Positions 14,375 through 56,644 of a DNA stretch of 64,000 bases are shown here, in pieces. How positions within the stretch are numbered: position 1 is the stretch's first letter; each line of letters begins with the position of its first letter. Origin of the DNA: Candidatus Woesearchaeota archaeon (GTDB taxonomy: Archaea; Nanobdellota; Nanobdellia; SCGC-AAA011-G17; JAGVZF01); NCBI GenBank assembly GCA_964549185.1, contig CAZJUI010000001.1, positions 850 through 64,849 of the forward strand, given 5' to 3'. The position numbers were made by a program, and so were the translations under genes. The notes under the pieces were generated by a model that was given only the letters and a program-made list of their open reading frames with translations, was not told where the DNA came from and searched no databases.

Positions 14375-14413
14375 TTCGAAACATTTTTAATAATATTGTA
14401 TTAAACTCTTTTT

Positions 14414-15400: not shown

Positions 15401-15401
15401 A

Positions 15402-26470: not shown

Positions 26471-28356
26471 TTCGTACTTTCTACTCTCTCCCAGGCGTCA
26501 TTATAATGTTTTCTTATCAATCTAGTATCGTAATAAACACTAATCCACATATATAATCTGGCAAAAAATAATCTTAATGTCCACCAAAATTCTCTCAAAT
26601 TTTTAGGATAAGATAAAGCCCAAAATGTTCCAATAAATACTTCATTAAAAAAAGATTTAACTCTCGGAAAATCAGGAGCATATTTGGTTAATGTTTCATG
26701 AGCCTTTGCTGTTCTTTTTCTTTGTTTAAACCATTCATCAAAATTATCAGGGTTCTTAACAAATACTTTAGCCTCTTTTACATACTTAATTTTATATCCT
26801 CTTTTCCAAAAATAATAAGGGATTATGCTGTCTTCAGCTACATCTAATGGAATCTTATGGATGATATTATTTCTAAAGGCAAATAAATATCCAGAACATT
26901 CTAAAAATTTCCCTTGTTCGGATAATTTTTTTCTTATTTTATGGGCTCCAGCATCAGCCAATAAATGACTCCAATATCCAAATATATCGTCTTTTGTATT
27001 AGATGAAACAATTCTTCCTGTAACACATCCTGTTTTAAGGTCAAAAAAAGATCTAGCAATTTCATTAATTGAATTTTCTCCCAAAACAACATCACCATCT
27101 GTAAAAATCAAAATATCTCCCTTTAATTCTTTAAATAATAAATTTATTGCATAGCTTTTTCCTATTCCAGGATCTTTAAAATATTTTATATTCTGTTTTT
27201 TATTTAGCTTATTAAATAATGTTTTAGCTTCTTCATCTGGACTTGCTATAATAATTTCATAGTCGTAATCTATTTGTTGTTTCAGTATAGAATCAATAGC
27301 CTTTGGCAAATTAGGTTCTTTAAAAGAAGTAACAATAATTGATAATTTATTTTTTATTAACCTATTCGCAGCATTAACAATATTATCTACATTCATCTTA
27401 TTCATACTTTGGCAGTCTGATTTATAACAACATAAACAATTAGAATTTGGCGTTAATCTTATACCTTGTCCATACAAATCTAGTTCTGCAGCAGATGTTG
27501 GACCAACTAAAACGACAACTTTCCTGTTCAGAGCTACAGCTAAATGTAATCCTAAGCTGTCGCTGGTTACAAAAACATTACAAATTGTTATTAATGCTGG
27601 AAATTCAAAAAGATCATTGCCACATCCCGTGTTTATTATAGGAACTTTGCTTAAAGAAATAATATTGTCATTTCTTTCTATCTCATCCTGCCCGCCAAAC
27701 AGCAATATTTTATATTTATAATTTTTATATAACATTTCAGCAAGTTTTGCTGTCTTTTCTATGCTTAATTTCTTTGATGGCCAAACTCCACCAGATCCTG
27801 TATTAATTCCTATAACAATATCCTCTTCTCTTATATTATATCTTCTCTTGAAATCACTTAAAAATTTCCCTTGTTCCCTATTTAATTTTAAATTCATAAA
27901 AGTCTTATCATAATCCACTCCAACCATATCGCTAATAATTTGTTGGTACGTTTTCTTATTTTTCTTTTTGAGAATATCATTTTGGGGTTTCTTGCCTAAT
28001 TTACTCATATCATACCATTCTTTTGCGCTTTCAGAGGGTATAACTCTAAGATTTTTATCTAAATAGTTTCCAATGATCTTTCCAGTTTTAATCTTTGTAG
28101 CCAATGCACAAGCTTCAAAATCTTCATCTAAGTTAATTACAATATCAAAATGCATTCCTTCTAGGTATTTTAAATTTACCTTGCTGTAATAAACTGCATC
28201 ATCAACAAATTTATTATTTTTTATTAGGTAATAAGCATTCTTTTTTGTAAGCCAATAAATCTTTGAATCTCTATATTTTTCTTTTAATGCTGGAAGTATT
28301 GCAGTTGTTCTTACTACATCTCCCATAGCTCCTAATTTAATTATAAGAATTTTCAT
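26467..28356 (-). CDS. Fusion protein: N-terminal GT9 (heptosyltransferase-like) plus C-terminal GT2 glycosyltransferase.
   Basis: The N-terminus MKILIIKLGAMGDVVRTTAILPALKEKYRDSKIYWLT is GT9. The C-terminal half, from about residue 340, has LSIIVTSFKEPNLPKAI...FTDGDV, a GT2 DxD region. 629 aa. It is translationally coupled to the upstream kinase. Confidence 0.65.
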   Translation of the reverse strand: MKILIIKLGAMGDVVRTTAILPALKEKYRDSKIYWLTKKNAYYLIKNNKFVDDAVYYSKVNLKYLEGMHFDIVINLDEDFEACALATKIKTGKIIGNYLDKNLRVIPSESAKEWYDMSKLGKKPQNDILKKKNKKTYQQIISDMVGVDYDKTFMNLKLNREQGKFLSDFKRRYNIREEDIVIGINTGSGGVWPSKKLSIEKTAKLAEMLYKNYKYKILLFGGQDEIERNDNIISLSKVPIINTGCGNDLFEFPALITICNVFVTSDSLGLHLAVALNRKVVVLVGPTSAAELDLYGQGIRLTPNSNCLCCYKSDCQSMNKMNVDNIVNAANRLIKNKLSIIVTSFKEPNLPKAIDSILKQQIDYDYEIIIASPDEEAKTLFNKLNKKQNIKYFKDPGIGKSYAINLLFKELKGDILIFTDGDVVLGENSINEIARSFFDLKTGCVTGRIVSSNTKDDIFGYWSHLLADAGAHKIRKKLSEQGKFLECSGYLFAFRNNIIHKIPLDVAEDSIIPYYFWKRGYKIKYVKEAKVFVKNPDNFDEWFKQRKRTAKAHETLTKYAPDFPRVKSFFNEVFIGTFWALSYPKNLREFWWTLRLFFARLYMWISVYYDTRLIRKHYNDAWERVESTK

Positions 28357-30758: not shown

Positions 30759-31679
30759 TTATCCGATTGCAATCAATACTGTTCCAAAAATCATAATTAA
30801 AGCAGCTACAACATTCTTTATTATTCCTCTTTCTTTAAAGAAAATATATCCATAGATTATGCTAAAAACAATGCTTAATCTTTTTACAGATATCATATAA
30901 GCATTTAAAGTTAAACTTTGCGCTTTGAAAGAAGCCAAGCTCATCAAAGCGCTTAATGTTCCTATTATCAACAATATCCATATATTAGTTTTACTAGCTG
31001 TCCTTATTGGATTTTCTTTAAATCTTATCATTATATATAATGTAGATACAATACAGATTGAAATTATAGCCAATCCAGAAACAGCTAATGGGTTTTTTGT
31101 TTGATTTATTAAAATTTTATACAGTGGAGTTACAACAGCATATAAAAAAGCAGCTATAAGCATATACATTGATCCTTTATCTCTGAATAAGCTTCTAATT
31201 GGTTGGAATGAAATAAATCTTCCTTCTGTTTTTATTATATAAGATCCAAGAAATATCAAAAAAATCCCGATTGCTCCCAATAATGATGGTATTTCATTCA
31301 AAAAAATCCATGATATTATTGTTAAAAAAACAGGTGTAAAACTCAAAAAAGGAACTGTAATTGCTAATCCAGATATTTTAATTGCCTTTACATATAAAAT
31401 TATCGCTATCATCTCTAAAATTCCTGTAACAAAAAGCAAGAGAATTGATAATAAATCTAAATTCGGAATCTTTACAATAAATAATGTTATTATAATTATT
31501 GGTAAAGAAAAAAACCATACTGCCCATGAAACAATATAATCATTATATCTATTTAACGCTAGTTTCTGAACTAAATTATTCGTAGCTGTACTTAGTGCTG
31601 CAAATAAAGATAGTATTAGCCAAAGCATATTTATATTAAAAAAACACAGTTTAAAAAACTTGTTATTAATTAAAAACAT
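30759..31679 (-). CDS. DMT-superfamily (EamA-like) 10-TM transporter.
   Basis: 306 aa, arranged as two blocks of five hydrophobic helices. The annotated start overlaps the divergent neighbour, so the true start may be the internal Met near 31628. Confidence 0.45.
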   Translation of the reverse strand: MFLINNKFFKLCFFNINMLWLILSLFAALSTATNNLVQKLALNRYNDYIVSWAVWFFSLPIIIITLFIVKIPNLDLLSILLLFVTGILEMIAIILYVKAIKISGLAITVPFLSFTPVFLTIISWIFLNEIPSLLGAIGIFLIFLGSYIIKTEGRFISFQPIRSLFRDKGSMYMLIAAFLYAVVTPLYKILINQTKNPLAVSGLAIISICIVSTLYIMIRFKENPIRTASKTNIWILLIIGTLSALMSLASFKAQSLTLNAYMISVKRLSIVFSIIYGYIFFKERGIIKNVVAALIMIFGTVLIAIG

Positions 31680-31707
31680 TTATAACTTTTTCCACCATTC
31701 CATATTT

Positions 31708-33471
31708 ATGAAAGATGTAAAGATCGGTGACAAGATAATTGGCAAAGGCCATCCTGTCTTTGTTATAGCAGAAACAGCCTCTAGCCATGTAGGAAATAAA
31801 GAAAAACTTAAACAACTAATTAAAGCTGCAATAGATTCAGATGCAGACGCAATTAACCTACAAAAATTCTATGCAAATGAGCTTGCTGTTCCTCAAAATC
31901 CACAGCATAAAGACTTAGCAATTATTGAACTTAAAGATTCAGATTGGAAAGAAATCCTAGATTATACTAAAACATTAAACACAATTATTATAGGAAATCC
32001 ATTTGATGAATCAAGTGTTGATTTTTTTGATCCTTATGTAGATGCTTTCAAAATCCACTCTACTGATATTAATAATCCAGAAATGTTAACCAAAGTTGCA
32101 AAAAAGAATAAACCTATGTTTCTCGGTATTGGAGGAGCAAAACCTTTTGAAATAAAAAGAGCAATTAAAATTCTTCAATCAACTGGAAATGATCAAATCG
32201 TCTTAATGCATGGTTTTCAAGCCTTCCCAACAAGATTAGAAGATAGTAATCTAAAATTAATACCGACAGCAGAAAAAGAATATGATCTTCCAACTGGTTT
32301 TCTAGATCATATTGATGCAGAGACAAAGATGGCAATGGTTCTTCCATTATTATCTGTAGTTCAAGGAGCTGTTTTAATTGAAAAACATATCACTCTAGAC
32401 AGAAAATTAAAAGAATATGATTACTTTTCTGCTTTACATCCAAATGAATTCAAAGAAATGATGTTCTTAATTAGAGAAACAGAAAAAGCAATCGGTCATG
32501 GACAATTTATTCAATCAGAAGGTGAAGTTGGATATAATACCATGATGAAAAAGAATTTAGTTGCAAAAGTTCAAATAAAAAAAGATACAATTTTAACAAA
32601 AGATATGATAACTTTCAAAAGAGCTCGAGTTAATCCAGGACCTTCTCCAATTGATATAGAAAAATTTATAGGTAAATCAATAAATAAAGACTTAAATGAA
32701 AATGATCCAATTACAATGGAAGATTTAAATCTTAAATCAATTATTACATTGGCTGTTAGAATGAAATCATCTAGATTGCCAAGAAAAGCTCTAGCTGTAG
32801 TTGAAGATCAAACTGTTATCGAACATTTAATTGATAGAATGAAACTTTGTAAAGTCCCATCTGATTTAATTTTATGTACATCAACTCATCCAGATGACGC
32901 TGTTTTAATAGATATCGCAAAGAAAAAAGATATAAAATATTTTGCAGGTTCAGAAGATGATGTTATGGATCGTTTCATTAAAGCAGCATTGCCTGAAAAA
33001 GCAGATATAATTGTAAGAGTTACAGGAGATAATATTTTCACAGATCCTGAATGGCTTGATGAAACAATAAGATTCCATATAAAAAATAATCTAGATTATT
33101 CATTGCAGGATGGACTTCCAATTGGTTGTGTTTCAGAAGTTATCACTCTACATAATTTAATTAAAGCTCATGAAGCAGCTCTAGATCCTGAAAATACAGA
33201 ATATATGACATATTATTTAAGAAATGAAGATTATTTCAAGGGAAAACAATTAAAAGTTTCAGATGAATTTTATTTTCCAAATTACAGATTAACAATAGAT
33301 AATCCAGAAGATTTACAATTAATTCAAGCAATCTTTAAAGAACTTTACACTCCTGGAAAAGTAATTCCATTAAAGGATGTTCTAAATTTAATAAATAAAA
33401 AGCCTGAATTGCTAAATATAAATAAAAATGTTCAAGGAATACAATTTACAGTTAAGGGTTTGAAAAGTTAG
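31708..33471 (+). CDS. Fusion: NeuB-like nonulosonic acid synthase (N-terminal) plus SpsF/PseF-like cytidylyltransferase (C-terminal).
   Basis: The N-terminus KIGDKIIGKGHPVFVIAETASSHVGN...DADAINLQKF parallels the NeuB ORF at 37739. The C-terminal half has LAVRMKSSRLPRKAL (the SxRLPxK cytidylyltransferase motif, CTP_transf_3). I moved the start to ATG 31708; the track's TTG at 31660 would overlap the divergent gene. Confidence 0.65.
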   Translation: MKDVKIGDKIIGKGHPVFVIAETASSHVGNKEKLKQLIKAAIDSDADAINLQKFYANELAVPQNPQHKDLAIIELKDSDWKEILDYTKTLNTIIIGNPFDESSVDFFDPYVDAFKIHSTDINNPEMLTKVAKKNKPMFLGIGGAKPFEIKRAIKILQSTGNDQIVLMHGFQAFPTRLEDSNLKLIPTAEKEYDLPTGFLDHIDAETKMAMVLPLLSVVQGAVLIEKHITLDRKLKEYDYFSALHPNEFKEMMFLIRETEKAIGHGQFIQSEGEVGYNTMMKKNLVAKVQIKKDTILTKDMITFKRARVNPGPSPIDIEKFIGKSINKDLNENDPITMEDLNLKSIITLAVRMKSSRLPRKALAVVEDQTVIEHLIDRMKLCKVPSDLILCTSTHPDDAVLIDIAKKKDIKYFAGSEDDVMDRFIKAALPEKADIIVRVTGDNIFTDPEWLDETIRFHIKNNLDYSLQDGLPIGCVSEVITLHNLIKAHEAALDPENTEYMTYYLRNEDYFKGKQLKVSDEFYFPNYRLTIDNPEDLQLIQAIFKELYTPGKVIPLKDVLNLINKKPELLNINKNVQGIQFTVKGLKS

Positions 33472-33512: not shown

Positions 33513-33857
33513 ATGGAACAATTAGACAAAAAAATAACTTTTGAAGATGAAGTAACAGTAAATGATCCACTTTATTCCAGTTTAGCTACAACTATTTCTG
33601 CAAGTGGATTTCAAGCAGGTTATGACCAACGGCCATGGAGGGCTCCAAAAAAAGATGATTTGGTAAGTTCCAAACACATCGATATTTTTTCCTATGAAAC
33701 AAGAAGAACTGGTATTTTTGGATTAAATAAAGAAGCAGAATGGATTGGGAGACTATATCTAAATGATCCTTATTATGGAGCAAGAGAAAATTGCAGATGG
33801 GTATTAGATGTTCACGGAAGAAAAAATATTCCGGTATTAACAGAGCTTGCAAAATAA
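33513..33857 (+). CDS. Hypothetical small protein. Its C-terminal domain is shared with the ORF at 34279.
   Basis: 114 aa. The C-terminal GRLYLNDPYYGARENCRWVLDVHGRKNIPVL aligns with GYLYFNDPNKWKMEVYGRNNINKL of the ORF at 34279. Confidence 0.35.
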   Translation: MEQLDKKITFEDEVTVNDPLYSSLATTISASGFQAGYDQRPWRAPKKDDLVSSKHIDIFSYETRRTGIFGLNKEAEWIGRLYLNDPYYGARENCRWVLDVHGRKNIPVLTELAK

Positions 33858-33974: not shown

Positions 33975-34277
33975 ATGATAGACCCAGAAGATGTAAAATT
34001 AGTAAAGGGAAGGGCAAGTGATTTTAGATTAACCAAAAATTTCACAAATGATTTAGATTTAGAATTTATCTGTATGGTATCATCTGCAGATAGTGGAGAT
34101 ATTCAAGCAGTTAAAGGCAATGTTGATGCAGGTATAAAAGAATTAGCTGCTCGGGCTGGAGCAAATTATATATTTGAATTAGAATATGTTTTTCATTTTG
34201 ATAATAATAATGCTGTAATGAATATCATATGCTATGGAGATGCTTACTTAATAAAGCCTAGAAGAGATAATCAATAA
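33975..34277 (+). CDS. YbjQ/UPF0145-family (DUF74) protein.
   Basis: AARAGANYIFELEYVFHF...MNIICYGDAYLIKP matches the conserved GA(N)A(V)...G(T)AV core of YbjQ-family proteins. 100 aa. Confidence 0.5.
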   Translation: MIDPEDVKLVKGRASDFRLTKNFTNDLDLEFICMVSSADSGDIQAVKGNVDAGIKELAARAGANYIFELEYVFHFDNNNAVMNIICYGDAYLIKPRRDNQ

Positions 34278-34278
34278 A

Positions 34279-34758
34279 ATGCCAATCGATGATGCGTTAA
34301 ATGATTTGCCAAAATCAAAAGAAGCGTCAAAACAGATAGTTGCACCTCCAGAGCCAGAGCAAGCAAATAAAGTAACCTTCATTGATACAATACAGCAATT
34401 TAGAAATAGTTTACAATATCATCTTCCTTACCAACTGGCAACAATTATAAAAAGTAAGGGGTTAGAAGTAACATGGGATAATGGTAATATAGTTTCTTCT
34501 TTAGATTCTCAGCATTTTCTAAAATTTATATCGATGGGAATTGCAGCCCAAAAAAGGTTTTGGTTTGGTCATGACTGGATAGGTTATTTATATTTTAATG
34601 ATCCTAATAAATGGAAAATGGAAGTTTATGGAAGAAATAATATAAATAAATTAAAAAATCTTGCTGACGAAATATCAAAACGGTATTCAAAAGATATAGA
34701 GCTTATATTAGAATTAGAATATCCAAGACCAAAGCCAGTAGGATTTTATAATTTATAA
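34279..34758 (+). CDS. Hypothetical protein sharing a C-terminal domain with the ORF at 33513.
   Basis: 159 aa. Its start is 2 nt after the stop of the YbjQ-like gene. See the shared motif above. Confidence 0.35.
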   Translation: MPIDDALNDLPKSKEASKQIVAPPEPEQANKVTFIDTIQQFRNSLQYHLPYQLATIIKSKGLEVTWDNGNIVSSLDSQHFLKFISMGIAAQKRFWFGHDWIGYLYFNDPNKWKMEVYGRNNINKLKNLADEISKRYSKDIELILELEYPRPKPVGFYNL

Positions 34759-34759
34759 T

Positions 34760-35902
34760 CTAAATCTTTAATTCTTCATAAATTAACCTAACAACCCTTT
34801 CAGTAGCTTTCCCATCATTACCTTCAACAAAGCTTTTCCTTCTTTCTTTTAATTCTTCTCTAAATTCTCCATTATATAATATTTTCATTAAATTAGGAAC
34901 TAACTCTCTTGTCTCATAAACGCCAAGAGAATAACCATTTTTATTAGTAATTAATGGATCTTCTGTTTTTAATCCAACTTGTAAACTTAAAACATCGGTA
35001 TCTAATAAACAAGCTTCCATTAATGAAGTTGACATCATCCCAACTACCAAATTAGAAGCTTTCATTGTCTCTCTCGTATTATAATTATTATTATACTCTC
35101 TTTTTGTTGCATCTTCCTTTCCACTAATAACAAAATTCATATCTTTTAACAATAATGTTCTTTCTGCAATATCTTCAAATGTCTCTCTGGGATGAAATTT
35201 AATCACAAAAGTTCCATGATATCCCATGTCATTCAATCCCTTAGACAATATTTTAAAAATTGTTTCTTCATTATAACCCCAATCAGTCGTTTTATTAGCT
35301 TTAAGATCTCCTTTAATTGGCTGTGAAATAAATGTTATCAAACTTCCTTCTGGGTGCACTCCAAAATATTCTCTTATCTCTTTTCTTTTATTAATTGTAA
35401 ATTTAGCATTTAATTCTCCTATATCATCAAAGTAAGGGTTTCCTGTAATCTTTAATCTTTCTCTAGGTAAACTTTCTTTAACCATTTTCTCCAAACTTTC
35501 TGCATCTAATGCTGTATGAATATCAGGCATGCATCCTAAGTTATCTCCAGTTTTATCATTTCTAACTCTTACAATATAATTTACAGGTAAATCTATAACA
35601 GATAAACTTCTAACTCCTATCCTTCTAGCAGCTAATATTCCTTCTTTTTCAACACACCATCCACCACTGCTTCCAGTAACTAAAAAGTTTGGTTTTTCTT
35701 CTTCCATAGCTATATCACCACTCAAGTAATCATCTAGTTTTCTATGGGGTAAGCCAGCTTGTGTAAATAAACTAACAGCAGGTCCGTTAGCTATTAATGT
35801 CAAATCCACTTTATCATCTTTTTGCAATCTTCTTGCAACAGGGATAACAGAATTCGCACTTCCAGTATATTGCGCTGCCACCATCACTTTAGGTTTTGTC
35901 AC
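34760..35902 (-). CDS. Putative GT-B-fold glycosyl/nonulosonate transferase with a KxHP motif.
   Basis: 380 aa Rossmann-like protein. The VIKFHPRE motif is paralogous to IIKLHPKD in the ORF at 35942. HP motifs are catalytic in bacterial GT-B sialyltransferases and KpsC/S-type transferases. This is an assignment by motif only. Confidence 0.3.
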   Translation of the reverse strand: MTKPKVMVAAQYTGSANSVIPVARRLQKDDKVDLTLIANGPAVSLFTQAGLPHRKLDDYLSGDIAMEEEKPNFLVTGSSGGWCVEKEGILAARRIGVRSLSVIDLPVNYIVRVRNDKTGDNLGCMPDIHTALDAESLEKMVKESLPRERLKITGNPYFDDIGELNAKFTINKRKEIREYFGVHPEGSLITFISQPIKGDLKANKTTDWGYNEETIFKILSKGLNDMGYHGTFVIKFHPRETFEDIAERTLLLKDMNFVISGKEDATKREYNNNYNTRETMKASNLVVGMMSTSLMEACLLDTDVLSLQVGLKTEDPLITNKNGYSLGVYETRELVPNLMKILYNGEFREELKERRKSFVEGNDGKATERVVRLIYEELKI

Positions 35903-35941
35903 TTTTTATCACAAAATAAAGGTGTAGAAAAATATATAAAT

Positions 35942-37726
35942 CTATTTTATAGATATTTCATCAATAAGATTTATAACTCTTTCGGTGCTTTTTCCATCAA
36001 TTTTATAAGCATAATCCTTAATAAATTTCTCCATGTTTTTTTCTAGTTTTTCCTTAATCTTTTTATTGTTAAAAACCTCATTTATTGCCTTTTTCAATTC
36101 ATTTTCTTCTTTTATATCAATTACACATCCATAATCATTGTAATCAATCATTTCATTACTTCCTTTTATGTTGGCTAAATTTAAAGTAATTACAGGAACA
36201 TTAAACAACATAGATTCAATAACAACAGTAGATGAAGCCCTGCTTATAGTTAAATCTGCAATATTCAAAAAATTATAAATATCATAATCTTTAACAACAA
36301 CAACTTTGTTTTTAATATCCTTTAATCTGCTATTATAGAAATCAACCTCATCTTTTGGATGTAATTTTATTATTAGTTGCTCATCTTGCAAAGAATTAAT
36401 AACCGCCTTGAACATATCTTCTTTCTCTGGAACTGTCTGTGTTCCAAATAATATTATCTTTTTATCTTTATCCAAATTAAATTGTTTATATACTTCTTCT
36501 TTATTATATTGTTTATTTTTAATAATATCGAACTTACTGGCTCCAGTTATAACTATTTTCTTATCATTAACATTATTTTGTAATAAAAATTTCTTTGTAG
36601 CTTCTCCCCAAACAGCTATTTTTGTGCTTGTAACAGGAACAAATCCCAATCTTCCAGCAACTCCATGTTGTAAAACTAAAGATTTTATCTCTAATTTATT
36701 CCCGACAAAAGATACTGTTTTTCCAAATCTATGAACATCACTGCCTATAACAATAACATCTATCTTCTCTTTTTTTATAACAATTTTAATTCCTTCAATT
36801 AGTCTAACAACTTCATAAAAATGTTTAAACACGGTATAATACAATTCATCTTCTAAAATTTCCCATAAATTAATATTATCATACATAAATCTCCTATCTT
36901 GTTGTAAAATTTCCCATATCTGATCAAGCTCTTTCTTCTTTTTATCAAGAATATTATTTATTTCATTTAAATCATAATCCGCAAATGTATTAAATTTAAT
37001 GCCCTTTTTCGCAAATGCCTCCTGAACGTCTAAAGCTAAAGCGAATACTAAATAATTTTTGCCTTGTTTTTTCATCTCTTCTATAATCGGAAGCATTATT
37101 TGCGGATCTAAATTTAAATAGCTAAAAAACATCACTCTCTTATCTCCATAGTTTTTATTCTTATAATTAAAATTTTTTAACTTTACATAATTATCCAAAA
37201 CAACTGGTTTTATGTATCTTCCAGCAATAAATTTTGTTTTTTTTCTAAATATATTCATAAGATTAACATTCCCATTGCTAATAATCTCATATTTAGCATT
37301 CAGTTCCTTCAAACTAGTAATTATTGTTTTGCTTAGAAGATCTTTTCCATCAACTATCAAAAACATATCTGGTTTCTCTTTCTCAATAACCTTCTTTATT
37401 AATTCTACATTTACAATCAAGCTTCTTAAAACAAGTTCAAAATGTAAGCTTGTACATTCATATAATGGAATTCCATCATGCTTTGCCAATTTTTTTGCTT
37501 CAGAAAAACTAATCATTTTCCAATTAATGCTCATATTTCTTATTTTATCACTTAATTCATTAATTAATTTAGTTTCATTGATATAATCACTCTTCGTTTT
37601 AACATTCGTAGAATTAATTTTTTTGTTAGAAAGATTTAGTACTATTCCATCCCCTAAATCTTTTAATCTTCTATCAATCTTATCTAGTTCTTTCTCGTCT
37701 TTTACTATTCCGATAATCCTTGTCAT
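35942..37726 (-). CDS. Two-domain putative GT-B-like transferase (KxHP motif), paralogous to the ORF at 34760.
   Basis: 594 aa. The C-terminal half contains VLQHGVAGRLG and IIKLHPKDE. It is co-oriented with the ORF at 34760 and with NeuB. Confidence 0.3.
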   Translation of the reverse strand: MTRIIGIVKDEKELDKIDRRLKDLGDGIVLNLSNKKINSTNVKTKSDYINETKLINELSDKIRNMSINWKMISFSEAKKLAKHDGIPLYECTSLHFELVLRSLIVNVELIKKVIEKEKPDMFLIVDGKDLLSKTIITSLKELNAKYEIISNGNVNLMNIFRKKTKFIAGRYIKPVVLDNYVKLKNFNYKNKNYGDKRVMFFSYLNLDPQIMLPIIEEMKKQGKNYLVFALALDVQEAFAKKGIKFNTFADYDLNEINNILDKKKKELDQIWEILQQDRRFMYDNINLWEILEDELYYTVFKHFYEVVRLIEGIKIVIKKEKIDVIVIGSDVHRFGKTVSFVGNKLEIKSLVLQHGVAGRLGFVPVTSTKIAVWGEATKKFLLQNNVNDKKIVITGASKFDIIKNKQYNKEEVYKQFNLDKDKKIILFGTQTVPEKEDMFKAVINSLQDEQLIIKLHPKDEVDFYNSRLKDIKNKVVVVKDYDIYNFLNIADLTISRASSTVVIESMLFNVPVITLNLANIKGSNEMIDYNDYGCVIDIKEENELKKAINEVFNNKKIKEKLEKNMEKFIKDYAYKIDGKSTERVINLIDEISIK

Positions 37727-37738
37727 ACTCTATCATAA

Positions 37739-38809
37739 CTATTTCTTCAATTCTCCCACATGTTCCCAATCTAATATATCATCCTCTTTCATATCCTTTA
37801 CTGCTTTTCTTCCTATAATCTCTCTAAAGAATCTCGGATTAATTCCTGTACCGGGTCTTTTTGATGTTATATTTTTAATGTCAAATATCTCCCCAGCCTT
37901 AATATCTCTATTAGCTACAATGCTTCTTCTTGCTAATCTTTGAGCCGGCTCTTCAACTTTAATTGGTCGTCTTGCTAATGAACTTCCTAATGCACTTTCG
38001 ATCTGTTTTATATTTGTGACCATCTCTTTCAATTCTTTAGGATCTACAGATAACCAATGATCCGCACTTCCCTTCAATGCTTTATCTATGGTATAATGTT
38101 TCTCTATCATCTTTGCTCCTAAACTAACAGCTCCGATTGGCACCAAAGTTCCTAAACTATGATCACTTAATCCAATTAAATAATCCGGAAATATTTTCTT
38201 TAAAGTTGGAATCATATTCAAATTCATATCTTCAGTTGGTGTCGGATAAGACAAAATGCAATGCAACAATATTATTTGATTATTTCCCTCTTCTTCAATC
38301 ACCCTTGCAGCTTCTTCTATCTCCCCAATTGTAGCTGCTCCTGTTGATAATGCCATTGGTAATCCTTTTTTTGCTATATGTCTTAAAAGATTTAAATGAG
38401 TTATATCCGCACTTGCAATTTTATACATTGGCACCCCAATCTTTTCCAAAAAATCGGCACTTTCCTCGTCAAAGGGTGTTGAAAAAAATATTATTCCTAA
38501 TTCTTCAGCATATTTCTGCATTTTAATAAAATCTTCTTCGCTAAGATAATCGAAGTTCTTGTATTCATCATACTGTGTTTCATCACTTTCTGTCCAATAT
38601 TTGGGAGAATTTTTTATTGCTATTTTTTCAGCTTTATATGTTTGGAATTTTATGGCATCAGCTCCATTTTCTTTTGCCTTTTTTATTAATTCATAACCTC
38701 TTTCTAACATACAATCATGATTTACTCCAGCTTCAGCTACAACAAAACATGGCTCATCATCCCCTACATATCTATTTCCTATCTTTATTCTTGTCACCAT
38801 TTCAACCAC
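37739..38809 (-). CDS. neuB: N-acetylneuraminate/nonulosonic acid synthase (NeuB/PseI/LegI family) with a C-terminal SAF domain.
   Basis: CFVVAEAGVNHDCMLE...ADAIKFQTYKAEK, STPFDEESADFL, ILLHCILSYPTPTEDMNLN and a C-terminal KAGEIFD...ITSKRPGTG SAF domain. The match to E. coli NeuB blocks is strong. Confidence 0.85.
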   Translation of the reverse strand: MVEMVTRIKIGNRYVGDDEPCFVVAEAGVNHDCMLERGYELIKKAKENGADAIKFQTYKAEKIAIKNSPKYWTESDETQYDEYKNFDYLSEEDFIKMQKYAEELGIIFFSTPFDEESADFLEKIGVPMYKIASADITHLNLLRHIAKKGLPMALSTGAATIGEIEEAARVIEEEGNNQIILLHCILSYPTPTEDMNLNMIPTLKKIFPDYLIGLSDHSLGTLVPIGAVSLGAKMIEKHYTIDKALKGSADHWLSVDPKELKEMVTNIKQIESALGSSLARRPIKVEEPAQRLARRSIVANRDIKAGEIFDIKNITSKRPGTGINPRFFREIIGRKAVKDMKEDDILDWEHVGELKK

Positions 38810-40193
38810 CCTTATAGTTTCTTATTATCTGTTCAGCAAGCCACAAATCATATTCATTATATATCCTTACAGCTTCGTTCGGCATCATCTCTACATAAGC
38901 TACACTATTCCCAATAATTCCATTATTGTTTAAATTTTCTAAAGTTGTAATATAAAATGCTCCATTTTCTTCTAGGATAGTATCTTTTTCATCTCTCAAT
39001 AATCTTTTATTAAATAATGGCTCGATTCCATATCTTCCTGGTTTCCAATGAAAATTAAGGTTTGCACAAACAGAGACTATGCTATCTGTTTTAAATATTA
39101 ACTGGGTAAAAATTCCTTCTTTTATATGCTCACTTGTTTTAAAGGGGCTTATCAAATGTAAAACAGCAATTAAATCAGGAACATAATCATCATTCTTCTT
39201 CAAATAATCAACAACATGTCTTACAACATCATCAACATGAACTGTTTTTTTTGCTAAATCAACAGGTCTTTTGATAACATAAGCTCCTATTTTTTCAGCA
39301 GCACTTGCAATGTCATAATCTTCAGTAGAAACAACAATTTTATTAAACAATTCAGTTTTTTTCGCTTCATCTATCGTATAAGATAATAAAGGTTTTCCAT
39401 TTAAATTAGCGATTGGAATTTTAATCCCATTAATCATGTCGCCCCTAGCAGGAATAACAGCTAATATTTTCAAATTTTTTAACTTTCCATCATAATGTCT
39501 TTTAACAAATTCTTCCTTTACAATTCTTTTAGAGTGTAAAATCCCTTTCATATTCTTAGTCATATTTGCGCCATGTCTTCTATAATAAAACAAAGGCAGA
39601 TTAATATTTCTAACTTTAAATTTAGTAATAAACTTCATCCAAAAATCATAGTCTTCTCCAATCTTTAAATTTTCATTATATCCCCCAATTTCATCATAGC
39701 ATGTTCTCTTGTACATCGCTCCAGCAGCTAAAGGACTTCTTTGCAGTAAATCAACTTCTTCATTAACTTTCATCAATCTATTATGCTCCAATATCTTTCC
39801 ATCTTCATCTATGGTATAATAATCTGAATAAACCAAATCAACATCTTTATTTTCATACAAAAATCTTTCTTCTACCAATAGCAAATTATCATCAAAATAA
39901 TCATCAGCATCTAATCTTATTATAAAATCCCCCTGAGACATACTAATTCCTTTATTACAAGCTGCACTTAATCCAACATTATCTACCCTTATTACTTTCA
40001 AATTATTTGGAAATTTTGATTTATAACTCTGAATAACATCTTGAGTCTCATCTGTACTTCCATCATCTACTATAATAATCTCAAAATCCTTATATGTCTG
40101 TCTAAATAAACTTTCCAGGCATTTACCTAAAAACCTTCCGTAATTGTGAGCTGTCACTATCACACTTACTCTCGGTTTCTTAATAGTCTCCAT
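38802..40193 (-). CDS. Fusion: GT2 glycosyltransferase (N-terminal) plus NeuA-like CMP-nonulosonate synthetase (C-terminal).
   Basis: The N-terminus is VSVIVTAHNYGRFLGKCLESLFRQTYKDFEIIIVDDGSTDET (GT2). The C-terminus ILAVIPARGDMINGIKIPIANLNGKPLLSYTIDEA...VVSTEDYDIASAAEKIGAYVIKRP...LHLISPFK parallels NeuA blocks (IPARGGS, LxGKPLIAYTI, VSTDD, QPTSPLR). Confidence 0.7.
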   Translation of the reverse strand: METIKKPRVSVIVTAHNYGRFLGKCLESLFRQTYKDFEIIIVDDGSTDETQDVIQSYKSKFPNNLKVIRVDNVGLSAACNKGISMSQGDFIIRLDADDYFDDNLLLVEERFLYENKDVDLVYSDYYTIDEDGKILEHNRLMKVNEEVDLLQRSPLAAGAMYKRTCYDEIGGYNENLKIGEDYDFWMKFITKFKVRNINLPLFYYRRHGANMTKNMKGILHSKRIVKEEFVKRHYDGKLKNLKILAVIPARGDMINGIKIPIANLNGKPLLSYTIDEAKKTELFNKIVVSTEDYDIASAAEKIGAYVIKRPVDLAKKTVHVDDVVRHVVDYLKKNDDYVPDLIAVLHLISPFKTSEHIKEGIFTQLIFKTDSIVSVCANLNFHWKPGRYGIEPLFNKRLLRDEKDTILEENGAFYITTLENLNNNGIIGNSVAYVEMMPNEAVRIYNEYDLWLAEQIIRNYKGG

Positions 40194-40228
40194 AGTGTCA
40201 CCTTTTTCGCTTATATTATAAGTAATTC

Positions 40229-41305
40229 CTATATATTAACCTTTATCTCAGAAGGTTTAGCATATCTATAACCCTCATGCAGATTGCAAGTTCTGCAAGC
40301 AGGCATAACATCTAACTTGCTTTGTTTATGCAACTCTCTTAATTGATTTAGTATTGCTCCATTCCATATCTCTTTTAATGTTTGTTTAGTAACATCACCC
40401 ACAACATTTTTTCTAAACCAATCTCCACAGCACATCATAACCTTTCCATCCCACGCTACCATCAATCTTTGGAATGGCTGTGGACAAGTTTTTCTTCCTA
40501 AGGTAATTTGATCATATTCAATTGATCTATCATTTTCTTCTCCTTCCCCCCTATTGCTGTAATCATTAGTTGCAACATGATCTACTATTCCTTCCCACAT
40601 TTTGATAAATTGGTCAACTTCATGAACATTATCTTTCATCCTAACCATCTGTATTCTGATAAATGGTTTTTTCTTTCCCATTTCATTTCTTATTCTTACA
40701 AAATCTTTAATATTTTTCATTAAAATGTCATATTTTGCTCTCACTCTTATTTTTTCATAAGTTTCCTTAGTTGCTCCATCCATAGAAAATATTATTCCAT
40801 CTAATCCAGCTTCTATCAATCCTCTTATTTTATTTTCATTTAATAAAGTTCCATTAGAATTTGTTTGTAATTCCTTTATGCCTTTATCTTTTGCATATTT
40901 CACCATTTCAATAAATTTAGGATGTATTAATGGTTCTCCTCTCCAATTAAGTTTCATAGAATATAATCCTTCTTTTGCACATTCATCTACAATTTTATGA
41001 AATAAATCCATTGTAATAAATCCGTCTTGAATTCCGCTTCTATCAAAACTCTGTGGGCACATTACACATCTTAAATTGCATGCATCACTCGGTTCTATAT
41101 CAACATGTGTTGGGAATTTAGGTATTAATCCAAATCTTGCAACTCTCGGGCTCCAATTCCATTTAGCCCTATACCATAAGTACTTAGGATCTTTCTTATT
41201 CATAAACTTCTTTAATTTAGCTTTAAATCCACCTTGTATGTGATGTCCACTTCCACCATAGAAGTGTTGTTTCTCGTTTGTTTCATTACTTTGTTCAGTT
41301 GACAT
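40229..41305 (-). CDS. Radical SAM protein with a C-terminal SPASM/twitch Cys-rich domain.
   Basis: The CxxxCxxC triad is SDACNLRCVMC. The C-terminus CPQPFQRLMVAWDGKVMMCCGDW...PACRTCNL provides auxiliary Fe-S cysteines. Confidence 0.7.
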   Translation of the reverse strand: MSTEQSNETNEKQHFYGGSGHHIQGGFKAKLKKFMNKKDPKYLWYRAKWNWSPRVARFGLIPKFPTHVDIEPSDACNLRCVMCPQSFDRSGIQDGFITMDLFHKIVDECAKEGLYSMKLNWRGEPLIHPKFIEMVKYAKDKGIKELQTNSNGTLLNENKIRGLIEAGLDGIIFSMDGATKETYEKIRVRAKYDILMKNIKDFVRIRNEMGKKKPFIRIQMVRMKDNVHEVDQFIKMWEGIVDHVATNDYSNRGEGEENDRSIEYDQITLGRKTCPQPFQRLMVAWDGKVMMCCGDWFRKNVVGDVTKQTLKEIWNGAILNQLRELHKQSKLDVMPACRTCNLHEGYRYAKPSEIKVNI

Positions 41306-41312
41306 ATTAATC

Positions 41313-42767
41313 TTAAACAGTAGCTTCCCCGCTTTTTCCGGTTATCAAATTTAAAGCGCCTAAAGCTCCTCTCGCATAATATTTTACTTGTTCAAATGAT
41401 TTAATTCCAATAAACATCTTCCATAAATAACTTGGTCTCATATAAAATTCTTTGTAAGCTTTCTTTCTTAACTCTTGTAATTGGTCTGTTGTTAATTCCC
41501 TAGATCTTATTAATGGATCTTCAGCTATCTGCACCCAATTATCCCAATTTGGATCTGAAATTAAGTTTTCTTTTACAGTAATATCATACAATCCGGTTCC
41601 AACAATCGGGATTGCCAAGAAAAAATAAGCTAACTGAGGATTAATCTCTTTAGCTAATTTTATTGTTTCTTCAAATGTTTCTGTTGTCTCTCCAGGATAT
41701 CCTAAAATAAAAGATGCTGATGCTGGAATTCCAACTTCATGTATTAACTTAAAAGCTGCTTTTATTTGTGCAGGGGTTTGATCTTTTTCCATTGCATCCA
41801 ATATTTTTTGACTTCCTGACTCTACTCCAAATCTAACAAAATAACATCCTGATTTTTTCATCTTTTCTAAGCTTTCTCTGTCACAATGATTAACTCTAGT
41901 CAAACAGTTCCAATGCAGATCATAATCTCTTTTTATTAATCCATCTAAAATTGGATTCATTCTGCTTTTATTAATAACAAAAATTTCATCATTAAATTCC
42001 AAGCAATGAATATTAAATTTATCAACCAAATAGTCTATTTCTTCCAATGTTCTCTCAACACTCCAATATCTTACTTTTCTCGTCCACATAACCTTAGAAG
42101 CACAAAAATTACATCTGTAAGGACATCCTCTTAAAGAAAAAAATATTGTGAATGGTTGTAATTTAACACCTTTAACCTGGAATGAACTATGGTGCGCAGG
42201 TGGTCTATATAATTCCATAGGCAATAAATCATAAGCTGGCATTGGCAAAATATCTAAATTTTCAATTAATGGTCTTGGAGCAGTCATTCTTATCTGTCCA
42301 TTGTCTCTGTAAATCATTCCATTAACTTTAGATAAATCTTTTTTTCCTCTTTTTTCTAATTTATCTAATAGCTCAACTGTTGTTATCTCCCCCTCACTTA
42401 TAACTCCATAATCAACAATTGGAAATTCTTTCATTGTCTCAAAAGGCAGTGCAGTCATATGATCTCCACCTAAGAAAGTCTTAACATTAGGACTAACATT
42501 TCTAGCTATCTGTAGAACATCACATGCTTTTTTTACTGTAGGTGTAACAGCCCCAACTCCAACTACATCAACATCTTTTGGAATATGTTTATGCAATTCA
42601 CTCATCGGAATTTGTAAAGCAACAGCATCTAGAATACTCACTTTATGCCCATTCTCTCTCATATAAGCAGCAAGATAAGCTAATCCCATTGGTTGATTAA
42701 TTCCTGCAACTGTTGGAACTTTCTTATATACTTCCTGGTAGCTTGGGTTGATGAGTTGGACTTTCAT
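41313..42767 (-). CDS. B12-binding radical SAM protein, paralog 3.
   Basis: N-terminal B12-binding domain (MKVQLINPS...). The CxxxCxxC triad is GCPYRCNFC. 484 aa. Confidence 0.8.
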   Translation of the reverse strand: MKVQLINPSYQEVYKKVPTVAGINQPMGLAYLAAYMRENGHKVSILDAVALQIPMSELHKHIPKDVDVVGVGAVTPTVKKACDVLQIARNVSPNVKTFLGGDHMTALPFETMKEFPIVDYGVISEGEITTVELLDKLEKRGKKDLSKVNGMIYRDNGQIRMTAPRPLIENLDILPMPAYDLLPMELYRPPAHHSSFQVKGVKLQPFTIFFSLRGCPYRCNFCASKVMWTRKVRYWSVERTLEEIDYLVDKFNIHCLEFNDEIFVINKSRMNPILDGLIKRDYDLHWNCLTRVNHCDRESLEKMKKSGCYFVRFGVESGSQKILDAMEKDQTPAQIKAAFKLIHEVGIPASASFILGYPGETTETFEETIKLAKEINPQLAYFFLAIPIVGTGLYDITVKENLISDPNWDNWVQIAEDPLIRSRELTTDQLQELRKKAYKEFYMRPSYLWKMFIGIKSFEQVKYYARGALGALNLITGKSGEATV

Positions 42768-42912: not shown

Positions 42913-43230
42913 TCATATTTTGATGCCTTCTTTTACGGCTTCTGAAACTATAGAAACCTGTTTCTTTAATTTCTTGAACTCTCCCGGAGTATAGCAAAGA
43001 AAATCTACTGGATAATTTAAATCCCAATAATCATACATTTTAGCTCCTCTTTTAAAAAAATCTAATTTTTTAAATTTGGGGCTTACTATTATCAAATCTA
43101 TATCGCTCCATTTATGTGTTCTACCTGAAACTTGGGAACCAAATAAATACATATTTGTTATAGGGAAATCCTCATTTACAGATTTTTTAAAAAATTTTAA
43201 TTTTAATTTTATAGTTTTTTTCTTATCCAT
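42913..43230 (-). CDS. Minimal nucleotidyltransferase (MNT), a HEPN/MNT-type toxin-antitoxin component.
   Basis: MYLFGSQVSGRTHKWSDIDLIIV is the GSx(n)DxD nucleotidyltransferase signature. 105 aa. It overlaps the upstream HEPN gene by 22 nt. Confidence 0.7.
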   Translation of the reverse strand: MDKKKTIKLKLKFFKKSVNEDFPITNMYLFGSQVSGRTHKWSDIDLIIVSPKFKKLDFFKRGAKMYDYWDLNYPVDFLCYTPGEFKKLKKQVSIVSEAVKEGIKI

Positions 43231-43469
43231 TCTAATATTTCCTCCGAATATTCCAAAAATTTCCGAGATATATCTCTAATGTTCTTTTCTTCCTTAATAT
43301 CAGGATATCTAGCGTAAATATAAGATAAAGTTAATTCTTTACAATATTCAATAAGATTGTTTGGTAATTCAACATCCTTTCCGAGTTCTACTAAATCATG
43401 AATCTTTTTAAGTTTATTGGTTTTCTTATATATAATGCTTTCAGTCCTTTCTCTATAGATTGTTGACAA
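43209..43469 (-). CDS. HEPN-domain protein, partner of the MNT gene.
   Basis: 86 aa helical protein with the YIYARYPD segment seen in HEPN (PF05168) members. It is tightly coupled to the MNT gene. Confidence 0.45.
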   Translation of the reverse strand: MSTIYRERTESIIYKKTNKLKKIHDLVELGKDVELPNNLIEYCKELTLSYIYARYPDIKEEKNIRDISRKFLEYSEEILEWIRKKL

Positions 43470-46823: not shown

Positions 46824-48350
46824 GTGATTCTTATGGAAAAAAAAGTAAAATCAAAAGAAAAGAAAAAGATCATTTTAATCTATCCTAATCTAGGTATTTA
46901 TGGAAAGATCATTCAAGATTTACCTTTAGCTTTACTGCAAACAGCAAGAATTGTCTATGATAAAGGTTATGATATATTAATTCTCGATCAAAGACTAGAT
47001 GATAACTGGAGAGATACATTAAAAAAAGAAATTAACAAAGACACTTTATTTGTAGCTCTATCTGCAATGATAGGTGAACCAATAAACTATGCTCTAGAAA
47101 TTGCAAAGTTCATGAAAGATAACTATCCTGAAATGCCTGTTCTTTGGGGCGGTATTCATCCAACATTATTGCCTTTACAAACTTTAGAACATCCATTAGT
47201 TGATATTGTAATTAAAGGAGATGGAGAAGAAACAATCTATGATGTTGCTCAAGCATTAGAAAAAGGTAAATCATTAAAGGGAATTCCAGGTGTTTTCTAT
47301 AAAGAAAAAGACGGAACTATAGTTTCAAATCCAGTAAGAGCTCCATCTAATCTAGATGCTTTACCTCCAATTCCATATAATTTAGTAAACATTGAAGCTT
47401 ATGAAAGACAAGGATTCAAAGAAAAAACATTCACAATATTTACCTCCGCTTCCTGCCCTCATAGATGTGCATTTTGCCATGTTCCAGGTGAAAAAAGTAC
47501 ATGGCGTCCTGAAAGTGTAGACAAAACAATGGCTCATTTAAGATATATTTATAATACTTACCATCCTCAATATATCTACTTTGGAGATAATGATTTCTTT
47601 GTAAGAATGGACAGGGCAAAGGAAATTTTTAGAAGAATAAAAGAAGAAAAATTTGAAGGAGTTACTTTCGGTTTCAGGGGAACAAGAATAGATGAACTAG
47701 ACAGAATGGATGATGCAATGTTATCTTTAATGGAAGAAATTAATCTAACATATTTACATATTGGAGCTGAATCAGGATCACAAAGAATTTTAGATTTCAT
47801 CTGGAAAGACATAAAATTAGAGCAAACAATAAGAGTAAATGAAAAACTTGCTAAACATCCAAAACTTCATCCATCTTACAATTTTTTCTGTGGAGTTCCT
47901 ACAGAAACTAAAGCTGATTTAAAAGCAACAACTGATCTAATTTTAAGATTATTGCAAGATAATCCAAATGCTCAGATTAGCAGCGCAACTCAATTCACTC
48001 CTTATCCTGGAACAAGATTATTTGACATAGCTATTCAATATGGATTTAAGCCTCCAACTTCGCTAGAAGGATGGGCAAAGTTTGATCCAAGTGATTTCGC
48101 AAAAAGACTTCCATGGTTAAGTAAAGAAAGACAAAGATTATTAGACTTAATTTACATAACAGCATGGTTTGTAGATAAAAAAGTGAATTGGAACTTTACA
48201 TCAGATGAAATATTCTGGAAAGTGTTTCGTACATTGTCATCAGCTTATCGCCCAATAGCAAAATTTAGATTGAAACATCATTTTACAGGTCTTCCATTTG
48301 AATATCCTGCTAGAAAAATATTCTTTAATATATTAGAAAATAGAAACTAA
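46824..48350 (+). CDS. B12-binding radical SAM protein, paralog 4.
   Basis: N-terminal B12-binding domain. The CxxxCxxC triad is SCPHRCAFC. 508 aa. The start may be ATG 46833 rather than GTG 46824. Confidence 0.8.
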   Translation: MILMEKKVKSKEKKKIILIYPNLGIYGKIIQDLPLALLQTARIVYDKGYDILILDQRLDDNWRDTLKKEINKDTLFVALSAMIGEPINYALEIAKFMKDNYPEMPVLWGGIHPTLLPLQTLEHPLVDIVIKGDGEETIYDVAQALEKGKSLKGIPGVFYKEKDGTIVSNPVRAPSNLDALPPIPYNLVNIEAYERQGFKEKTFTIFTSASCPHRCAFCHVPGEKSTWRPESVDKTMAHLRYIYNTYHPQYIYFGDNDFFVRMDRAKEIFRRIKEEKFEGVTFGFRGTRIDELDRMDDAMLSLMEEINLTYLHIGAESGSQRILDFIWKDIKLEQTIRVNEKLAKHPKLHPSYNFFCGVPTETKADLKATTDLILRLLQDNPNAQISSATQFTPYPGTRLFDIAIQYGFKPPTSLEGWAKFDPSDFAKRLPWLSKERQRLLDLIYITAWFVDKKVNWNFTSDEIFWKVFRTLSSAYRPIAKFRLKHHFTGLPFEYPARKIFFNILENRN

Positions 48351-56166: not shown

Positions 56167-56644
56167 TCATATCCATAAAACCTTTTCTATAAATTTTAAT
56201 ATCTTCGTTATTTATTTTTGAAATAAAATCAATTAATTTACTATTAAAAATTTCAGCTTTACTTATAGTATCTTTAACTTCCTCTTTGGTTACCACAAAA
56301 TCAACATAATATTGCTTATCTATCCTTTCTTTTTTCGCATCAAAGATTTCTTTATTATCATAATTAAATAGATTTTTTAGTAATATTATAGAAGCGGAAT
56401 GGTTTTCAGATTTAATTCCAATTTTAAATAACAAAGCAGTTAATAGATGATACATACTATAATAAGCAAGTCCAACAGATTCTTCAAATTTATCATTATT
56501 CAGAAGAATTTTTGCAGAAGCAAGATTACTTTCAGATTTTATAATATATGATTGTTTCAATTCTTCACTTGATTCAACTAATTCTAATTTTCTTTGCTTA
56601 CGAAGTTTCTTCAAAAAATTTGTTTCTTTCATAATATATTTCAA
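56159..56644 (-). CDS. HEPN-domain protein (toxin-like partner of the upstream nucleotidyltransferase).
   Basis: 161 aa helical protein. The SNLASAKILLNN...AYYSMYHLLTALLFKIGIKSENHSASI segment is HEPN-like. It overlaps the upstream NTase gene by 47 nt. Confidence 0.5.
   Translation of the reverse strand: MKYIMKETNFLKKLRKQRKLELVESSEELKQSYIIKSESNLASAKILLNNDKFEESVGLAYYSMYHLLTALLFKIGIKSENHSASIILLKNLFNYDNKEIFDAKKERIDKQYYVDFVVTKEEVKDTISKAEIFNSKLIDFISKINNEDIKIYRKGFMDMIK

Follow-up and report, generated by a model that had tools for sequence, protein, structure and literature searches.

A conserved fusion of a GT2 glycosyltransferase domain with a degenerate NeuA-like domain in a nonulosonic acid gene cassette of a Woesearchaeota archaeon

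Introduction

A gene at 38802-40193 on the minus strand of a 64,000-nucleotide stretch of Candidatus Woesearchaeota archaeon DNA (contig CAZJUI010000001.1, positions 850 to 64,849; hereafter the window, numbered from its first letter) encodes a 463-residue protein, in which an intact glycosyltransferase domain of family GT2 is fused to a domain with the fold of NeuA, the cytidine monophosphate (CMP)-nonulosonate synthetase. The catalytic motifs of the NeuA-like domain are degenerate. Nonulosonic acids (NulO) cap the surface glycans of many microbes, and the enzymes that tailor and transfer them are poorly known. Both domains come from well-known superfamilies, and databases already contain proteins of this architecture under automatic names ('glycosyltransferase' or 'CMP-N-acetylneuraminic acid synthetase/GT2'). 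What is new is that a degenerate NeuA domain serves as the fixed partner of a GT2 domain, and that NeuB and a radical S-adenosylmethionine (SAM) enzyme with a SPASM domain constantly accompany the fusion. No published account of the fusion or of its cassette was found in the literature searched; the papers on Halorubrum, Leptospira, and B. subtilis describe the corresponding genes as separate only.

Architecture and conservation of the fusion protein

The open reading frame (ORF) runs uninterrupted from an ATG at 40193, with AAAGGTGA upstream of it, to a TGA at 38804-38802. An earlier note on this DNA, made from the sequence alone, had described a GT2-NeuA-like fusion at this place; the fusion is real, all the peptides quoted in that note are present in the translation, and Pfam, PDB, AlphaFold2, and Foldseek agree on it. 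Three segments were delimited on the minus strand, namely a GT2 domain of GT-A fold at residues 7-217 (39543-40175), a helical interdomain linker at residues 218-242 (39468-39542), and a NeuA-fold domain at residues 243-459 (38817-39467). The first was assigned by Pfam, PDB sequence match, Foldseek, and conserved motifs, the linker by predicted helices at residues 215-233 and 235-240, and the third by Pfam, NCBIfam, Foldseek, and alignment.

In Pfam, PF00535 (Glycos_transf_2) matched residues 10-134 (E 1.3e-33; 116.7 bits against a cut-off of 23.3) and PF02348 (CTP_transf_3) matched residues 246-328 (E 2.9e-09; 37.5 bits against a cut-off of 22.6), the latter match spanning only positions 3-85 of the 217 positions of the profile. 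The NCBIfam model for PseF, TIGR03584, aligned to residues 244-442 with 73.6 bits, which is below its equivalog cut-off of 205.7. When the PDB was searched by sequence, residues 5-216 matched 6p61, a 228-residue GT2 protein of Leptospira (E 1.5e-35), and residues 240-459 matched the NeuA structures 6ifd, 9t4z, and 1eyr (E 3.5e-18 to 6e-13). The PDB matches of the C-terminal half are synthetases of CMP-N-acetylneuraminate (CMP-Neu5Ac), CMP-ketodeoxynonulosonate (CMP-Kdn), and CMP-pseudaminate (CMP-Pse). ArnC, GtrB, and DPMS matched the GT2 domain at E 1e-4 to 1e-6 as against 1e-20 to 1e-35 for soluble GT2 proteins, and the assignment as a polyprenyl-phosphate glycosyltransferase was rejected.

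The AlphaFold2 model of the fusion, computed with an alignment of 120 homologues as input, had a predicted local distance difference test (pLDDT) score of 92.3 and a predicted template modelling (pTM) score of 0.88. It placed a GT-A domain at residues 9-205, across which the pLDDT was above 90, and a NeuA fold at residues 243-459. Foldseek matched the N-terminal half to 6p61 with a TM-score of 0.95 and the C-terminal half to five solved CMP-nonulosonate synthetases with TM-scores of 0.80-0.89; no solved chain with both domains was among the Foldseek matches. Matches of this quality are well outside what chance would give. The most conserved part of the protein is its N-terminal half, an intact, metal-dependent GT-A/GT2 domain; the C-terminal half has a CMP-NulO synthetase (NeuA) fold and is descended from canonical NeuA.

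The earlier note had suggested a look for the same fusion in related genomes. A protein search with the fusion gave 1,737 matches at E <= 1e-5, of which the best 120 were analysed. There are at least 120 full-length homologues, and the best 120 are 451-496 residues long, 43-97% identical to the fusion, and cover at least 96% of it; both Pfam domains were found in all except three of them. These 120 relatives come from Omnitrophota, Nitrospirota, Elusimicrobiota, Planctomycetota, Aenigmatarchaeota, Hadesarchaea, Nanoarchaeia, and haloarchaea, the carriers including the cultured haloarchaea Halosimplex and Haloarcula and complete haloarchaeal genomes. The cluster at 97% identity to the fusion holds a protein labelled 'Candidatus Nanoarchaeia archaeon'; an identical copy of the window's own fusion protein was not on record in an exact look-up. 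In a library of 1.84 billion proteins, the C-terminal domain retrieved approximately 29 clusters (50% identity) at E <= 1e-30 and some further fusions lower down, and thousands of canonical NeuA proteins lay beyond the fused-domain clusters. The sequence diversity of the fusion family is modest. In the 120-sequence alignment, the mean pairwise identity was 62% for the GT2 half, 42% for the linker, 47% for the NeuA half, and 35% for its P-loop.

Split forms exist as well. Two of them were at loci L001 and L007, the former with a GT2 gene followed by a gene for an SpsF-type cytidylyltransferase. On an Ignavibacteria contig, the gene for a 221-residue GT2 protein (42% identical) and an SpsF-type cytidylyltransferase gene share 4 nt, and this pair is followed by oxidoreductase genes and NeuB; an Actinomycetota contig has the order GT2-NeuB-cytidylyltransferase.

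Catalytic residues of the two domains

The motifs of both halves were counted in the alignment of 120 fusion sequences. The key residues of the GT2 half are D44-G-S-x-D48, the DxD motif D95-A-D97-D98, the base region E180-D181-Y-D183, and Y203-Y-R-x-H207. D95, D97, D98, D183, R205, and H207 were present in all 120 sequences, D44 in 119, and the catalytic-base residues E180 and D181 in 118. GT-A enzymes with a DxD motif use nucleoside-diphosphate (NDP) sugars, and sialyltransferases are usually devoid of it (PMC7439481, PMC5420450). In B. subtilis, the GT2 enzyme SpsA does not serve as the transferase for CMP-legionaminic acid (PMC7439481). From these motifs we infer that the GT2 domain uses an NDP-sugar as donor. 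Of the two readings offered in the earlier note, the fallback, in which the GT2 domain takes another donor, has the better support.

The picture was distinctly different for the C-terminal half, described in the earlier note as a NeuA-like cytidylyltransferase: the NeuA fold was present and the catalytic motifs of a NeuA cytidylyltransferase were absent. In the canonical enzyme, the P-loop residues Arg12, Gly14, Ser15, Lys16, Lys21, and Asn22 contact the phosphates and ribose of CTP, and the E. coli enzyme loses its activity with K21A (PMC6580227). The P-loop of the window protein is PARGDMINGIKIP, with only the Arg of these six residues kept. Across the 120 sequences, the equivalent of Arg12 was Arg in 65 and Met in 44, and Lys16, Lys21, and Asn22 had no conserved counterpart. 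The P-loop also varies between subfamilies by insertions and deletions, with PARAESRINGGKLAL and PAMGLFRNKEKLAL beside the form of the window's clade, with deletions, and with a haloarchaeal insertion. The equivalent of Gln104 was His in 44, Pro in 32, Gln in 23, and Tyr in 13 sequences, and is H346 in the window protein. Either D209A or D211A cripples the Neisseria meningitidis enzyme, with a kcat approximately 15,000-fold lower (PMC2901514). The equivalent of Asp209 was never Asp (Arg in 61, His in 45, and Lys in 12, hence basic in 118 of 120; Arg443 in the window protein), and that of Asp211 was Asp in 48 and Glu in 43, together 91 of 120, with Tyr445 in the window protein.

Other residues of the NeuA-like half were kept. 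T290, R309, and E409 were found in all 120 sequences, R397 and D370 in 119, and Y414 in 117, and residue 400 was basic in 116. By alignment, R309 corresponds to the cytosine-binding Arg71, R400 to Arg165 of the swapped arm, and Y414 to the sugar-contacting Tyr179. The aligned positions thus indicate that the residues handling the triphosphate and Mg are lost, and that the three which contact the cytosine (Arg), the sugar (Tyr), or belong to the swapped arm (Arg) are kept. With T290, R309, and E409 invariant and others nearly so, the domain is still under selection. PARGGSK..KN, QPTSP, RQ, and D-I-D all remain in six NeuA-type genes that stand alone in the cassettes of the fusion, and also in the nearest stand-alone relatives in the 1.84-billion-protein library (37-40% identical). 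Therefore, the loss is specific to the fused domain and derived.

Genetic context of the fusion gene

The fusion lies in a run of six co-directional minus-strand genes with gaps of at most 39 nt (34760-42767). The run starts with a B12-binding radical-SAM enzyme at 41313-42767, assigned by Pfam and NCBIfam; a comparable gene comes after the fusion at locus L085. A radical-SAM/SPASM enzyme at 40229-41305 (PF04055 and PF13186; 93.4 bits for TIGR04321, 'spiro-SPASM') ends 35 nt upstream of the fusion, which is followed by a NeuB-family nonulosonate synthase with a SAF domain, here called NeuB-B (37739-38809; 356-residue ORF), and by two GT-B proteins. Since all these genes lie on the minus strand, the order given in the earlier note, NeuB first with its stop overlapping the start of the fusion, is reversed: the fusion comes first, and its stop meets the start of NeuB-B.

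The two genes are translationally coupled. The TGA of the fusion (38804-38802) overlaps a possible GTG start of NeuB-B at 38809. As judged from the sequence, the more likely start is the ATG at 38800, one base past this TGA and with the Shine-Dalgarno-like AAGGGTGG before it; at L091, a locus 96-99% identical to the window, NeuB is called as a 353-residue protein from the ATG that matches 38800. The NeuB-B protein scored 292.9 bits for Pfam NeuB (PF03102) and 45.9 bits for the SAF domain. It was below both NCBIfam equivalog cut-offs (359.8 against 399.65 for NeuB, TIGR03569; 313 against 340.25 for PseI, TIGR03586). The description of it as a canonical NeuB therefore stands for the family and goes too far for the equivalog.

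Ten contexts of the fusion were compared, namely the window and loci L081 and L084-L091, with orthology assigned by BLAST. A NeuB ortholog adjoins or lies near the fusion in all ten. A radical-SAM/SPASM ortholog was found in eight, counting the window, and a distant one (26%) in a ninth; the identity to the window protein was 43-48% in seven further loci and 98% in the syntenic L091. The start of the fusion adjoins or overlaps an SDR dehydratase/epimerase gene in L085, L087, and L090.

In seven of the ten contexts there is also a second, divergent NeuB (NeuB-A), paired with an SpsF-type cytidylyltransferase. In the window the two are joined with a SAF domain in one ORF at 31660-33471 on the plus strand (603 residues, listed with a TTG start). 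They are likewise fused in L091 (587 residues), whereas L081, L086, L087, L088, and L090 have a gene for each, the two lying side by side or overlapping. The cytidylyltransferase motifs of 31660-33471 are intact (VRMKSSRLPRK, TGDN, and YRLTIDNPEDL), and the SpsF-type domains across the contexts keep R.KS.RLP.K, GD.P, and YRLT.D.PEDL. This domain is likely to be the real CMP-sugar synthetase of the cassette. Even without counting the fused domain, canonical cytidylyltransferases equalled or outnumbered NeuB genes in seven of the ten contexts, which leaves the fused domain surplus as a synthetase there. At 16875-21368 of L091, the NeuB-cytidylyltransferase fusion is followed by genes for a DHDPS/NanA-family aldolase, an APH-type kinase, and a HAD phosphatase; none of these three is found at the matching position of the window, which is occupied by an EamA transporter gene (30759-31679).

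The last two genes of the run encode BFO_1060-like GT-B proteins. The first (35942-37726, minus strand; 594 residues) scored 102.2 bits and the second, a paralogue-like protein (34760-35902, minus strand; 380 residues), 42.2 bits for NF046086, both below its cut-off of 200 bits. No significant PDB sequence match was found for either. In an alignment of the 594-residue protein with 13 relatives, H456-P457 and S499-T500 were invariant or nearly so. Its relatives have Pfam matches to Epimerase_2, Glyphos_transf, Capsule_synth, and polysialyltransferase, and the TagF-like, KpsC/S-like, and polysialyltransferase families among them use CMP- or cytidine diphosphate (CDP)-linked donors. The BFO_1060 family includes genetically validated Tannerella transferases of pseudaminic (Pse) or legionaminic (Leg) acid derivatives and has the bacterial sialyltransferase HP motif (PMC5420450). 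Both proteins are likely NulO transferases on this comparison, the 594-residue one being the candidate CMP-nonulosonate transferase. The 594-residue protein has just 14 relatives at E <= 1e-8 and a low-confidence insert at residues 153-192.

No NeuC, PseG, or LegG equivalog was found within the 64-kb window, and no hydrolase of these types inside the cassettes of L081, L084, L085, and L089. The only strong Epimerase_2 protein of the window was rejected as a NeuC, as it is a non-hydrolysing WecB equivalog (424.8 bits, versus 86.1 for NeuC).

Function of the fusion protein

We tentatively favour a general model in which an active GT2 enzyme is combined with a non-catalytic NeuA-like module, an account that is plausible from the residue patterns. 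The NeuA-derived domain would no longer make CMP-NulO; it may bind a cytidine-linked NulO or NulO itself, and may also dimerise the protein. In the favoured version, the GT2 domain would use an NDP-sugar to glycosylate the NulO-containing ligand held by the NeuA-like domain. Cytidylylation would be done by the SpsF-type domain fused to NeuB-A, and NulO would be transferred to the glycan by the BFO_1060-like proteins encoded directly downstream. The cassette may move as a unit between bacteria and archaea. If so, together with the 62% identity of the GT2 half across both, the substrates are probably small molecules that the cassette itself produces, and not a glycan peculiar to one lineage.

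The fuller form of this proposal is speculative. That the repurposed NeuA fold presents a CMP-nonulosonate as acceptor to the fused GT-A domain, so that the cassette builds an undescribed NulO, activated and glycosylated and/or modified by radical-SAM chemistry, seems doubtful to us at present. The cassette meant here comprises two NeuB paralogues, an SpsF-type cytidylyltransferase, and a radical-SAM/SPASM enzyme, with or without a B12-binding radical-SAM enzyme. Under this reading, it would be shared by horizontal transfer among DPANN, other archaea, and several bacterial phyla.

Several points weigh against the pseudoenzyme model and its favoured version. We know of no enzyme that glycosylates a CMP-linked sugar, and the favoured acceptor is speculative for this reason. 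The residue equivalences to the N. meningitidis enzyme come from sequence alignments and not from superposed coordinates. The AlphaFold model of the 594-residue protein (pLDDT 82.5) was closest to UDP-GlcNAc 2-epimerases including NeuC (TM-scores 0.6-0.7, at 12-16% identity), and solved sialyltransferases were not its closest fold in Foldseek; therefore, a hydrolase or epimerase role is possible for it too. The NeuA-like domain is well conserved, with R254 in 94 and K258 in 67 of the 120 sequences and an acidic residue commonly at the Asp211 position, and a family-wide, rewired but active site may exist. Furthermore, the window (within its 64 kb), L091, and L086 each have two NeuB genes and one canonical cytidylyltransferase, which would leave a job for the fused domain.

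The strongest rival is a truly bifunctional protein, in which a rewired, active CMP-NulO synthetase would serve the product of the adjacent NeuB, an independent GT2 domain would carry out a glycan step with an NDP-sugar, and the fusion would co-localise both. We regard it as possible, though on balance unlikely. Apart from the gene count in the window and the common R254, K258, and acidic residue just mentioned, it would agree with the translational coupling to NeuB, with the 47% identity of the NeuA-like domain, and with its conserved R309, T290, E409, and R397. Related CMP-Kdo (ketodeoxyoctonate) synthetases have their metal ligands at different sequence positions (PMC2901514), so that active sites in this superfamily can be rewired. 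However, the putative replacement residues are 56-78% conserved, as against 98-100% for the catalytic residues of GT2, and family members differ in the P-loop by insertions and deletions. In the window protein, R254 is missing and the Asp211 position is Tyr. Canonical cytidylyltransferases are at least as numerous as NeuB genes in seven of the ten contexts, and a GT2 identity of 62% over bacteria and archaea would be unusual for a transferase acting on lineage-specific glycans.

A feedback-regulated supplier of the NeuB substrate appears improbable. Here, the GT-A domain would hydrolyse an NDP-hexose in the role of PseG, NeuC, or LegG, and the dead NeuA domain would sense CMP-NulO. The missing hydrolases of the window and of the four cassettes named above and the SDR genes at the start of the fusion in three loci are in its favour, as is the GT2 domain itself, which is minimal (approximately 210 residues) and highly conserved, as for a small-molecule enzyme. 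Nevertheless, no dedicated NDP-sugar hydrolase of GT-A type is known to us from NulO pathways. The BFO_1060-like neighbours with their 2-epimerase-like fold could fill the hydrolase role, and NeuB might take sugar phosphates or free sugars. Also in favour of this supplier role, end-product inhibition of first steps by CMP-NulO is known, as for PseB by CMP-Pse (work cited in PMC4758666).

The earlier note had read the fusion as one protein that activates a NulO and then transfers the same CMP-activated sugar by its GT2 domain, a reading that has become very improbable. The domains are physically fused in a rigid predicted geometry (pTM 0.88), the gene is coupled to NeuB, and engineered synthetase-sialyltransferase fusions reportedly work. 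However, we know of no GT2 enzyme that uses a CMP-sugar, the activating domain is without its catalytic motifs, and dedicated GT-B candidates with the HP motif, which are better placed as the transferases, are encoded directly downstream. The invariant DxD is typical of metal-dependent enzymes that use NDP-sugars (PMC5420450, PMC7439481).

An artefact, that is, an unconserved fusion of two genes joined by a missed stop or frameshift, as the earlier note had considered, is practically dismissed because at least 120 independent clusters, some from complete haloarchaeal genomes, and many independent contigs show the same uninterrupted architecture, with a conserved helical linker modelled at high confidence.

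Should the NeuA-like domain be a ligand-binding pseudoenzyme, an activating enzyme would clearly have been reused here for recognition or regulation, and genome surveys would do well not to list such genes among the CMP-sialic acid synthetases. The label 'CMP-N-acetylneuraminic acid synthetase/GT2' probably misstates the function of the C-terminal half. The cassette with its radical-SAM/SPASM enzyme, found from Nanoarchaeia to Nitrospirota and Omnitrophota, is a testable lead to new NulO chemistry in uncultured lineages.

Comparison with known systems

With the NeuA, LegF, PseF, and CMP-Kdn synthetases of known structure (1eyr, 6ifd, 9t4z, 9ftc, and 1qwj), the fusion shares VST(E/D), RP..LA, KRxxR, ENGAxY, and the domain-swapped arm. 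In contrast to these canonical enzymes, the fused domain has no PARGGSK..KN, its Gln104 is replaced, its arm is shorter, and it sits behind a GT2 domain. Natural NeuA fusions with a C-terminal esterase occur in E. coli K1 and group B Streptococcus, in which NeuA is N-terminal and catalytically canonical; here a degenerate NeuA fold stands at the C-terminus and is joined to a GT2 domain with DxD. Many other multi-domain relatives of NeuA, 360-580 residues long, were found in the 1.84-billion-protein library.

The nearest solved relative of the N-terminal half, the Leptospira borgpetersenii glycosyltransferase 6p61, is 36% identical to it and is a minimal GT-A protein with DxD. The spsA gene of B. 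subtilis, like the fusion, lies beside a NeuB-like gene (spsE) and a cytidylyltransferase gene (spsF). Unlike the fusion, 6p61 and SpsA are stand-alone proteins; neither has a known acceptor, and SpsA is dispensable for legionaminic acid transfer (PMC7439481).

The two GT-B genes of the window resemble BFO_1060/Tanf_01245 of Tannerella forsythia in following NulO biosynthesis genes and in the HP motif (PMC5420450). They differ in their NF046086 scores of 102 and 42 bits under a cut-off of 200, and the 594-residue protein is longer and has UDP-GlcNAc 2-epimerases as its nearest solved folds.

TIGR04321 ('spiro-SPASM') is an uncharacterised spirochaete family, on which no paper was found in the literature searched. 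Its N-terminus is like the SpsF-type domain of the window (32700-33471, plus strand) and its C-terminus like the radical-SAM/SPASM enzyme at 40229-41305. The two modules are separate genes in the window, and the match of both to the halves of TIGR04321 suggests that they form one functional module, fused differently by lineage.

Other genes in the window

The window (G+C approximately 28%) is an archaeal AglB-type N-glycosylation island of Nanoarchaeia/DPANN-like kind. It encodes an AglB/STT3 oligosaccharyltransferase of 868 residues at 11768-14374, an adjoining AglH-like GT4 protein, and a flippase, these three genes lying within 11768-16682. No tRNA genes were found within the 64 kb.

Further glycan enzymes at 19582-20850 (minus strand), 25484-28356 (minus strand), and 22316-23362 (plus strand) comprise a fusion of GT2 with a methyltransferase, a fusion of GT9 with GT2, a further GT9, and an RfaE-domain-I-like heptose kinase. 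The GT9 proteins, the kinase, and the fusions taken together suggest a heptose-containing glycan. There are four B12-binding radical-SAM genes in the window, at 2643-4061, 16685-18028, 41313-42767, and 46824-48350, which suggests that sugars are extensively modified by radical (C-)methylation or in other ways.

Three small plus-strand ORFs at 33513-33857, 33975-34277, and 34279-34758 had no Pfam match. The first and third have the C-terminal motif W-I-G-x-L-Y-x-N-D-P ... V-x-G-R-x-N-I in common and are paralogue-like, and L091 has small unannotated genes at the position of the three. A HEPN/minimal-nucleotidyltransferase pair resembling a toxin-antitoxin system lies at 42913-43469 (minus strand), between the cassette and a flippase gene, and a second ORF with a nucleotidyltransferase domain was found at 56598-57164 (minus strand).

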